Below, one piece after another: positions 21,199 through 24,204 of a DNA stretch of 64,000 nt (its first letter is position 1; each line of letters starts with the position of its first letter). Under the pieces are notes generated by a model. It did not search any database, was not told where the DNA came from, and saw nothing but the letters and a program-made list of their open reading frames with translations. The DNA is from Escherichia coli (GTDB lineage Bacteria > Pseudomonadota > Gammaproteobacteria > Enterobacterales > Enterobacteriaceae), in the NCBI RefSeq assembly GCF_046105845.1, contig NZ_CP151004.1; one strand, given 5' to 3'. A program made the translations under genes and the position numbers.

Positions 21199-22194
21199 AT
21201 GAAAAAGAAAAGACCCGTACTTCAGGATGTGGCTGACCGTGTAGGCGTGACCAAAATGACGGTCAGCCGCTTTTTGCGTAACCCGGAGCAGGTTTCCGTC
21301 GCTCTACGCGGCAAGATTGCCGCCGCTCTTGATGAACTGGGTTATATTCCCAATCGCGCACCCGATATCCTCTCTAACGCCACCAGCCGGGCGATTGGCG
21401 TCCTGTTACCTTCTCTCACCAACCAGGTTTTTGCGGAAGTATTACGCGGAATCGAAAGCGTCACCGACGCGCACGGTTATCAGACCATGCTGGCCCACTA
21501 CGGTTATAAACCGGAAATGGAGCAAGAACGCCTCGAATCCATGCTCTCCTGGAATATCGACGGCCTGATCCTCACTGAACGTACGCACACGCCGCGCACC
21601 TTAAAGATGATTGAAGTGGCGGGGATTCCGGTGGTGGAGTTGATGGACAGCAAGTCGCCGTGCCTCGATATTGCCGTCGGTTTTGATAACTTTGAAGCGG
21701 CACGCCAGATGACCACCGCCATTATTGCTCGCGGGCATCGCCACATTGCCTATCTCGGCGCACGTCTCGACGAACGTACTATCATCAAACAGAAGGGATA
21801 CGAACAGGCGATGCTGGATGCAGGCTTGGTGCCGTATAGCGTGATGGTTGAGCAATCTTCTTCTTACTCTTCCGGTATTGAACTGATTCGCCAGGCGAGG
21901 CGGGAATATCCGCAGCTGGATGGCGTGTTCTGTACTAATGATGACCTGGCGGTCGGCGCGGCGTTTGAATGTCAGCGTCTGGGGTTAAAAGTTCCTGACG
22001 ATATGGCGATTGCCGGTTTCCACGGTCATGACATTGGTCAGGTGATGGAACCACGGTTGGCGAGCGTACTGACGCCGCGTGAGCGGATGGGCAGTATTGG
22101 CGCTGAACGCCTGCTGGCGCGTATTCGTGGCGAATCTGTGACACCGAAAATGTTAGATTTAGGTTTCACCTTGTCACCGGGCGGATCTATTTAA
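21199..22194 (+). CDS. gntR: Gluconate utilisation repressor GntR (LacI family)
   Basis: 331 aa. N-terminal HTH LQDVADRVGVTKMTVSRFL. Upstream of gntK-gntU. Confidence 0.94.
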   Translation: MKKKRPVLQDVADRVGVTKMTVSRFLRNPEQVSVALRGKIAAALDELGYIPNRAPDILSNATSRAIGVLLPSLTNQVFAEVLRGIESVTDAHGYQTMLAHYGYKPEMEQERLESMLSWNIDGLILTERTHTPRTLKMIEVAGIPVVELMDSKSPCLDIAVGFDNFEAARQMTTAIIARGHRHIAYLGARLDERTIIKQKGYEQAMLDAGLVPYSVMVEQSSSYSSGIELIRQARREYPQLDGVFCTNDDLAVGAAFECQRLGLKVPDDMAIAGFHGHDIGQVMEPRLASVLTPRERMGSIGAERLLARIRGESVTPKMLDLGFTLSPGGSI

Positions 22195-22273
22195 GCCCAC
22201 AAATTTGAAGTAGCTCACACTTATACACTTAAGGCACGGATGGATATTGCTTCTGATATTGTCCGGCCGGAGA

Positions 22274-22302
22274 ATGTTACCGATAACAGTTACCCGTAAC
22301 AT
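22274..22302 (+). promoter_or_regulatory. GntR operator in the gntKU promoter
   Basis: ATGTTACCGATAACAGTTACCCGTAACAT contains two overlapping copies of the GntR palindrome ATGTTAC-N-GTAACAT. Confidence 0.75.
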
Positions 22303-22332
22303 TTTTAATTCTTGTATTGTGGGGGCACCACT

Positions 22333-22860
22333 TTGAGCACGACTAACCATGATCACCACATTTACGTCTTGATGGGCGTATCGGGCAGCGGCAAATCTGC
22401 GGTCGCAAGTGAAGTGGCGCATCAACTTCATGCCGCGTTTCTTGATGGCGATTTCCTCCATCCACGGCGCAATATCGAAAAAATGGCGTCTGGCGAACCG
22501 CTGAATGACGACGATCGCAAACCGTGGTTGCAGGCGCTGAACGACGCCGCGTTTGCTATGCAGCGCACTAATAAAGTGTCGCTGATCGTCTGTTCTGCAT
22601 TGAAAAAACACTATCGCGACTTGCTGCGTGAAGGTAATCCGAATCTCTCTTTCATCTACCTGAAAGGCGATTTTGATGTGATTGAAAGCCGCCTGAAAGC
22701 GCGCAAAGGCCATTTCTTTAAAACCCAAATGTTGGTGACGCAGTTTGAAACGCTGCAGGAGCCGGGTGCGGACGAAACCGATGTACTGGTGGTGGATATC
22801 GATCAACCGCTGGAAGGTGTTGTGGCAAGCACCATTGAGGTTATTAAAAAAGGCAAATAA
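22333..22860 (+). CDS. gntK: Thermoresistant gluconokinase GntK
   Basis: 175 aa if initiated at the TTG at 22333 (MSTTNHDHHIYVLMG...). P-loop GVSGSGKS. The ORF contains no ATG in the N-terminal region. Confidence 0.88.
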   Translation: MSTTNHDHHIYVLMGVSGSGKSAVASEVAHQLHAAFLDGDFLHPRRNIEKMASGEPLNDDDRKPWLQALNDAAFAMQRTNKVSLIVCSALKKHYRDLLREGNPNLSFIYLKGDFDVIESRLKARKGHFFKTQMLVTQFETLQEPGADETDVLVVDIDQPLEGVVASTIEVIKKGK

Positions 22861-22863
22861 GTA

Positions 22864-24204
22864 GTGACTACATTAACGCTTGTTTTAACAGCAGTAGGGT
22901 CTGTTTTACTGCTGCTGTTTTTAGTCATGAAGGCGCGTATGCACGCTTTCCTGGCTTTAATGGTGGTGTCCATGGGGGCTGGCCTTTTTTCCGGTATGCC
23001 GCTCGATAAAATCGCAGCGACGATGGAAAAAGGGATGGGAGGCACCCTCGGCTTCCTGGCGGTGGTTGTCGCCCTGGGAGCTATGTTTGGCAAGATCTTA
23101 CATGAAACCGGCGCAGTCGATCAGATTGCCGTCAAAATGCTTAAATCCTTCGGTCACAGCCGCGCACATTATGCCATCGGCCTTGCGGGGCTGGTTTGTG
23201 CACTACCGCTGTTCTTTGAAGTGGCGATTGTTCTGCTGATTAGCGTTGCTTTCTCAATGGCGCGCCACACCGGTACGAACCTGGTGAAGCTTGTAATCCC
23301 ATTATTCGCAGGCGTGGCGGCAGCGGCGGCATTCCTGGTGCCTGGACCAGCGCCAATGCTGCTGGCATCGCAGATGAACGCCGACTTTGGCTGGATGATC
23401 CTGATTGGCCTGTGTGCGGCAATTCCGGGAATGATTATTGCCGGGCCGCTGTGGGGTAATTTCATCAGCCGCTACGTGGAGTTGCATATTCCTGACGACA
23501 TCAGCGAACCACATCTCGGTGAAGGCAAAATGCCGTCCTTCGGATTCAGCCTGTCGCTGATCCTGTTGCCACTGGTGCTGGTGGGGCTGAAAACCATTGC
23601 CGCGCGCTTTGTGCCGGAAGGCTCTACCGCTTACGAATGGTTCGAGTTTATTGGTCATCCGTTTACCGCGATTCTGGTTGCTTGTCTGGTAGCAATTTAT
23701 GGCCTGGCAATGCGTCAGGGTATGCCAAAAGACAAAGTGATGGAGATTTGTGGTCACGCGCTGCAACCGGCGGGGATCATTCTGCTGGTGATTGGTGCAG
23801 GCGGCGTGTTCAAACAGGTGCTGGTTGACTCTGGCGTAGGTCCGGCACTGGGCGAAGCGTTAACCGGCATGGGCCTGCCGATTGCCATCACCTGCTTCGT
23901 GCTGGCAGCTGCAGTGCGCATCATTCAGGGTTCTGCCACCGTTGCCTGTTTAACGGCGGTGGGACTGGTGATGCCGGTTATTGAACAACTGAACTACTCC
24001 GGTGCGCAAATGGCGGCGCTGTCGATTTGTATCGCCGGTGGTTCGATTGTTGTCAGCCACGTTAACGACGCCGGTTTCTGGTTGTTCGGTAAATTTACCG
24101 GCGCGACTGAAGCCGAAACACTGAAAACCTGGACCATGATGGAAACCATCCTCGGCACTGTCGGTGCCATCGTTGGGATGATTGCTTTCCAGCTGTTGAG
24201 TTAA
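22864..24204 (+). CDS. gntU: Low-affinity gluconate:H+ symporter GntU (GntP family)
   Basis: 446 aa, GTG start 4 nt after the gntK stop. Polytopic membrane protein paralogous to GntT in this window. Confidence 0.92.
   Translation: MTTLTLVLTAVGSVLLLLFLVMKARMHAFLALMVVSMGAGLFSGMPLDKIAATMEKGMGGTLGFLAVVVALGAMFGKILHETGAVDQIAVKMLKSFGHSRAHYAIGLAGLVCALPLFFEVAIVLLISVAFSMARHTGTNLVKLVIPLFAGVAAAAAFLVPGPAPMLLASQMNADFGWMILIGLCAAIPGMIIAGPLWGNFISRYVELHIPDDISEPHLGEGKMPSFGFSLSLILLPLVLVGLKTIAARFVPEGSTAYEWFEFIGHPFTAILVACLVAIYGLAMRQGMPKDKVMEICGHALQPAGIILLVIGAGGVFKQVLVDSGVGPALGEALTGMGLPIAITCFVLAAAVRIIQGSATVACLTAVGLVMPVIEQLNYSGAQMAALSICIAGGSIVVSHVNDAGFWLFGKFTGATEAETLKTWTMMETILGTVGAIVGMIAFQLLS

Follow-up and report, generated by a model that had tools for sequence, protein, structure and literature searches.

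Our analysis supports translation of the Escherichia coli gluconokinase gene gntK from a TTG codon at position 22333 of the window, the stretch of 64,000 nucleotides of chromosomal DNA (contig NZ_CP151004.1) that was analysed. This reading is supported because the annotation, the protein structure, the orthologues and the conservation pattern, which are independent lines of evidence, all agree on 22333. The codon lies at the downstream end of a region, 22204–22335, that almost certainly acts as the regulatory and translation-initiation region of gntKU, comprising a promoter, a CRP-like site, two GntR sites and the UUG start. The arrangement has been annotated and published before, with its TTG start, its product of 175 aa and its overlapping GntR sites.

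The gntK locus and its initiation codon

Both the open reading frame list and the RefSeq annotation give the gene order yhhW-gntR-gntK-gntU on this chromosome. A 501-nt query around the gntR–gntK junction had matches of 95–100% identity in 5424 of the 5426 complete genomes of E. coli, and gntR and gntK were the features under every match. The genes and the elements around the gntK start are as follows:

21199–22194, + strand: gntR, LacI-family gluconate repressor of 331 aa (NCBIfam equivalog NF011563 and RefSeq)
22306–22308, + strand: in-frame stop codon TAA closing the frame upstream of gntK (read from the sequence)
22321–22325, + strand: Shine-Dalgarno-like GGGGG, 7 nt before the TTG start (purine conservation in 80 species)
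22333–22335, + strand: TTG, supported initiation codon of gntK (RefSeq start; TTG/ATG equivalence in orthologues)
22333–22860, + strand: gntK coding sequence, 175 aa plus stop, gluconokinase of the GntK/IdnK type (identical to PDB 1KNQ; NF008583)
22864–24204, + strand: gntU, gluconate transporter (equivalog NF007781), with a GTG start 3 nt past the gntK stop

The gene assignments rest on high profile scores: 776 bits for GntR against NF011563 (cutoff 433, aligned over residues 1–331) and 915.8 bits for GntU against NF007781. GntK reached 373.6 bits against the NCBIfam equivalog NF008583 (cutoff 265), with residues 1–174 placed on positions 1–174 of the 177 in the profile, and 241.7 bits against the subfamily profile TIGR01313 (cutoff 113.75). 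Its Walker A motif (P-loop, GxxGxGKS) reads GVSGSGKS at residues 15–22. All 175 residues are identical to those of the crystallised gluconate kinase in PDB 1KNQ, and this identity to a characterised enzyme implies that GntK phosphorylates gluconate in an ATP-dependent manner. The same 175-aa protein is encoded by gntK of K-12 (b3437; WP_000108330.1; 1KNQ), the thermoresistant gluconokinase of the GntI system, which also shares the gene order yhhW-gntR-gntK-gntU and the annotated TTG start. We take UniProt P46859 to be the product of this K-12 gene (b3437). A search of 22000–23100 against Rfam returned no RNA family, and an antisense open reading frame of 210 aa at 22174–22806 had no Pfam match.

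In three E. coli genomes covering the 95–100% identity span, RefSeq/PGAP places the start of gntK at the TTG at 22333. The original prediction had chosen the same codon and given the N-terminus as MSTTNHD; the codons that follow the TTG are AGC ACG ACT AAC CAT GAT CAC CAC, which read STTNHDHH and confirm it. The prediction was also right that the six-frame list extends gntK too far upstream, as the mechanically called frame starts at 22312 and has 182 aa. Its statement that no in-frame ATG lies near the N-terminus has to be qualified, as the nearest such ATG stands at codon 14 (22372–22374).

To compare start codons we used the orthologous locus from 80 Enterobacteriaceae species, and sequences of Cronobacter, Pantoea and Erwinia were fetched separately. 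The codon aligned with 22333 is TTG in 77 of the 80 species and ATG in the other three (Yokenella, Trabulsiella and Buttiauxella); it is likewise ATG in all three of the separately fetched outgroup genera. The alignment with GntK orthologues that had been suggested as a check therefore came out in favour of 22333, in line with the RefSeq start, the identity to 1KNQ and the full-length match to NF008583. Codon-periodic conservation starts directly after the TTG: across codons 2–13 the entropy at codon positions 1, 2 and 3 was 0.16, 0.08 and 0.65 bits, respectively, among the 80 species. Upstream of the TTG the indels are not multiples of three and no frame is conserved, and the operator lies 16 to 85 nt from the start, depending on the species, at distances that are frequently not divisible by three. 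In 36 of the 80 species the stretch from the nearest upstream stop to the gntK start codon contains no further ATG, GTG or TTG in frame.

Upstream of the start, conservation was confined to a run of purines from −12 to −8 and to the base at −2, a C. In this run every species has G at −10, and the bases at −8, −9 and −11 are purines in 80/80 species (as GGGGG, GGGAG, GGAGG or GAGGG). The C at −2 (22331) is shared by the whole set of 80 Enterobacteriaceae species, the ATG-start ones included; Pantoea and Erwinia do not conserve it. The predicted fold of the leader and initiation region is less stable than 199 of 200 shuffled sequences (z = +1.7), which fits an accessible ribosome-binding site. 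Two structures that could hide the Shine-Dalgarno sequence were considered and rejected. The first, a GUGG/CCAC hairpin at 22319–22330 in the centroid fold, is at odds with a leader that folds worse than its shuffles, and its pairing is lost in Klebsiella and Salmonella sequences. The second, an inverted repeat between CCCACAA (22196–202) and TTGTGGG (22317–23) that would mask the Shine-Dalgarno sequence in gntR read-through transcripts, is a 7-nt match within 151 nt, i.e. near chance, and most genera have TCTGACAA in place of its left arm.

Annotated UUG starts account for a few per cent of E. coli genes. Sub-optimal starts tend toward stronger Shine-Dalgarno signals, according to Belinky et al. 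(2017; PMC5622118), who discuss selection on start codons, and gntK, like other UUG-start genes, fits this observation with its UUG and good Shine-Dalgarno sequence. It differs from them in that its TTG persists across many genera, at a level no higher than the neutral expectation once transversions are matched. In the naive comparison the T of the TTG, kept in 77/80 species, appeared exceptional, with only one of 48 four-fold sites as conserved. We then counted transversions only, because only a change from T to A or from T to G keeps a start codon, and 12 of the 48 four-fold sites were as conserved as this T. Retention of the TTG is thus no stronger than at synonymous sites, and we make no claim of selection for a weak start. 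The TTG might be kept to throttle GntK synthesis, an idea to which the transversion control lends no support. In the searched supplementary files of initiation-profiling papers (TetRP, INRI-seq) gntK had no entry, and literature searches for gntK with a TTG or UUG start gave no relevant match.

Overlapping GntR sites and the predicted gntK promoter

The region between gntR and the gntK start was aligned across 16 genera from the gntR stop onwards, which revealed four conserved blocks: a CRP-like site, ATTGCTT, the −10 and a 29-mer. The elements in these blocks, together with a second GntR-controlled gene used for comparison, are:

22204–22219, + strand: CRP-like site TTTGAagtagcTCACA (TTTGA-N6-TCACA), centred near −71.5 relative to the predicted start of transcription, with a putative function
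22247–22252, + strand: predicted −35 TTGCTT (near-invariant ATTGCTT block in 16 genera)
22270–22275, + strand: predicted −10 GAGAAT (spacing, with a 17-bp spacer of variable sequence, and conservation)
22274–22289, no strand: GntR operator site 1, ATGTTACCGATAACAG, 1 mismatch to ATGTTA-N4-TAACAT
22287–22302, no strand: GntR operator site 2, CAGTTACCCGTAACAT, 2 mismatches to ATGTTA-N4-TAACAT
59547–61039, − strand: gntT, high-affinity gluconate transporter of 438 aa, in the same window; the span includes the operator matches

The 29-mer ATGTTACCGATAACAGTTACCCGTAACAT occupies 22274–22302, between gntR and gntK, where it abuts the predicted −10, and is separated from the TTG by 30 nt (22303–22332). 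This is as the original prediction had it, with a 29-bp operator about 30 nt upstream of the start. Its description as a tandem GntR operator was correct in that there are two GntR sites, but not strictly so in their arrangement: the starts of the two 16-bp sites are 13 bp apart, which leaves 3 bp common to both. The 29-mer can be read as a direct repeat spaced at 13 bp, or as 15-nt inverted arms (87% complementary) around one central base. The composite pattern ATGTTA-N4-TAAC-N-GTTA-N4-TAACAT has a single match in the 64 kb of the window, with 0 mismatches; in 100 dinucleotide shuffles it had no match, even when up to 3 mismatches were tolerated. Two further operator-like matches, at 41199 (within an open reading frame) and at 45574, have 2 mismatches each, lie at chance expectation and were discarded. 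Across the 80 species the 29-mer is nearly invariant while its flanks vary. The CCGA spacer of site 1 differs in only two of them (GCAT in L055, CCGT in L078), and the most variable position is the central base (position 15), which is A or T. In the two loci from outside Enterobacteriaceae (L084, L085) the double operator is degraded: only ATGTTACCGATAACAA is left of it in Erwinia, and in Pantoea the first site is degenerate and TTGTTATCGGTAACAT comes after it, in a block of the same 29-bp length.

The adjacent cognate LacI-family gene, the near-invariance in 80 species and the literature support the 29-mer as a GntR operator. Ravcheev et al. (2014; PMC4052901) cite the GntR sites of gntKU as the case in which an overlap of LacI-family sites at a spacing of about 13 bp has been demonstrated, and the geometry at gntK is exactly as described there, with no difference. 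In the window the motif ATGTTA-N4-TAACAT also occurs twice upstream of gntT, at 60883–98 and 61024–39. On the gntT strand the latter site is ATGTTACCCGTATCAT, which is the published gntT operator (Peekhaus and Conway 1998), and the gntT operators and the gntK sites share the same 16-bp motif. The gntT sites lie 141 bp apart from start to start, whereas those of gntK overlap at a 13-bp offset on the promoter core.

For the binding geometry of LacI-family sites at a 13-bp offset, gntKU is the model example. According to PMC4052901 this geometry is hard to reconcile with known structures. Dimers at about 13 bp are described there as unable to interact, the overlap falls inside the specific contact zone, and a binding mode of unknown kind is proposed. 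These remarks, and the 3-bp overlap at the 13-bp offset itself, lend some weight to a reading in which the 29-mer is one composite element, in a single or an alternative register, rather than two independently occupied GntR sites. Such an element would hold one dimer at a time or form an unusual complex on distorted DNA, and the term tandem operator would then be only formally right. The inner half-sites are off consensus in the same way in 80/80 species, and this shared deviation, along with the A/T variation of the central base, points in the same direction. Against it, PMC4052901 states that Tsunedomi et al. (2003) had demonstrated function for GntR sites placed in this way, about 13 bp from each other, upstream of gntKU. 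In addition, a 2026 study (PMC13386637) found the gntK promoter to be tightly repressed by GntR, the tightest among the gntK, gntT and idnK promoters, which is compatible with double occupancy. We therefore consider a single composite element possible but unlikely, and prefer two GntR sites. A little less likely still is that GntR recognises the invariant 29-bp unit in a binding mode that is structurally undescribed for LacI-family repressors. If true, this would mean two dimers on overlapping contact zones or alternating registers, and it might explain why repression is tighter at gntK than at the gntT and idnK promoters.

The predicted promoter overlaps the preferred pair of GntR sites, and the last two bases of the −10 are the first two of site 1. 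Its hexamers agree with the consensus at 7 of 12 positions and fall below the threshold of the promoter scan, consistent with a weak, activator-dependent promoter. The candidate activator site is the only match in the window with at most one mismatch to TGTGA-N6-TCACA; 1.62 such matches are expected, which puts the match by itself at chance level, and its half-sites are invariant in 16 genera. Transcription probably starts at about 22282–84, inside site 1, giving a leader of about 50 nt. An alternative promoter with −35 TTGTCC (22259–64) and −10 GATAAC (22282–87) is less likely, as its −35 is not conserved while ATTGCTT is invariant. A K-12-like O16:H48 genome departs from the window at 2 of 90 bases in this upstream region, one in the −10 (GACAAT vs GAGAAT) and one in the spacer between −35 and −10 (CCGGCTGG vs CCGGCCGG, a polymorphism at 22266). 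The −10 GAGAAT is that of this strain; K-12-like strains have GACAAT, as do almost all other species. A palindrome in the spacer, ATTGTCCGGCCGGAGAAT, is strain-specific and not conserved, and was set aside.

From these elements we propose the following course of gntK expression. The weak sigma-70 promoter (−35 TTGCTT, 17 bp, −10 GAGAAT) would drive transcription, probably helped by CRP at 22204–22219. The two overlapping 16-bp GntR sites abut this promoter and span from the end of the −10 to about +20, so that GntR bound to the operator would block RNA polymerase, and gluconate would release GntR. The transcript would then begin within site 1 with a poorly structured leader, and a ribosome positioned on GGGGG would initiate with fMet at the UUG, yielding the 175-aa gluconokinase MSTTNHDHH.... 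Our analysis itself establishes the sequence features, how they are conserved, the annotation and the equivalence of TTG and ATG in orthologues; the exact transcription start, the role of CRP, the occupancy of both sites by GntR and the use of the UUG in vivo are drawn in this scheme from the sequence or from the literature.

Alternative starts and disagreeing gene calls

Two other in-frame codons come into question as starts of gntK:

22312–22314, + strand: upstream TTG, start of the mechanical 182-aa frame, rejected
22372–22374, + strand: ATG at codon 14, start in some database entries (162 aa), rejected

The original prediction had regarded the codon at 22312 as an upstream ATG; it is in fact a TTG. 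It is the first start-type codon past the in-frame stop at 22306–08, and translation from it would give a 182-aa protein beginning MYCGGTTLSTTNHD.... An in-frame TTG at this position (−21) is limited to about 14 of the 80 species, among them other Escherichia, some Citrobacter and Kosakonia. The sequence before it, GTAACATTTTTAATTC, is A/T-rich and has no Shine-Dalgarno sequence; the conserved purine run makes up codons 4–5 of the longer frame and sits as a Shine-Dalgarno sequence for 22333. The seven extra codons fall within the frame-breaking indels among genera, and the 36 species that lack any upstream start speak against 22312 as well. The Enterobacter group has an in-frame stop 24 nt upstream of the start and only a different TTG, at −18. 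Finally, none of the annotations of the three RefSeq E. coli genomes uses 22312. We regard initiation at this codon as very improbable.

No better founded is a start at codon 14. ATG is the preferred start codon, Met14 is invariant in the 80 species, and the databases contain a 162-aa 'gluconokinase [Escherichia coli]' (P0017, a cluster of 28 sequences) that starts MGVSGSGKS, since Met14 directly precedes the Walker A motif. However, codons 2–13 are kept as protein, with synonymous variation at their third positions, and orthologues have an ATG at the codon aligned with 22333, both of which argue against Met14. The family profiles also begin before it: position 1 of TIGR01313 falls on residue 11 and position 3 of AAA_33 on residue 12. 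A protein starting at Met14 would therefore lose positions 1–3 of TIGR01313 and, in the AAA_33/SKI domain, the first strand, which leads into the P-loop. The sequence preceding the ATG, CACATTTACGTCTTG, is again devoid of a Shine-Dalgarno sequence. A 162-aa gntK product thus has very little to recommend it. Initiation at 22312 or 22372 might still take place at a low level beside that at 22333.

The preferred start, TTG at 22333, corresponds to one of at least three lengths among public gntK gene calls: 162, 175 and 196 aa. Comparison of the P0017 and P0003 proteins showed that the 196-aa Salmonella-like call (MLPITVTRN..., MLPITVTRNNLQLVEWGPALSTTNHD...) starts at the ATG of GntR operator site 1. 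This ATG is in frame with gntK in S. arizonae (L012) and out of frame in E. coli. As public gene calls conflict, gntK makes a clean test case for start-codon prediction, and the equivalence of TTG and ATG across species is the type of evidence that resolves disputed starts such as this one. The practical relevance lies in annotation quality, and the case adds little to biology.

The junction of gntK and gntU

The start codon of gntU (22864) was compared in 78 species (loci L004–L083), where it is GTG in 59, TTG in 19 and ATG in none. In many species it overlaps the gntK stop, as GTGA or TAGTG (the gntK–gntU junction lies at 22858–22866 in the window), and this overlap suggests translational coupling of gntK and gntU.

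Within codons 9–20 of gntU, at 22887–22925, lies a hairpin of 11 bp followed by a U-run (−16.4 kcal/mol, z = −4.15). It resembles an attenuator placed inside the operon, between gntK and gntU. Izu et al. are said to have described attenuation of this kind in the operon in 1997. Of 58 distinct orthologous sequences, 50 retain at least 10 of the 11 pairs of the hairpin, which is weaker in Salmonella arizonae/diarizonae and in Kosakonia cowanii.
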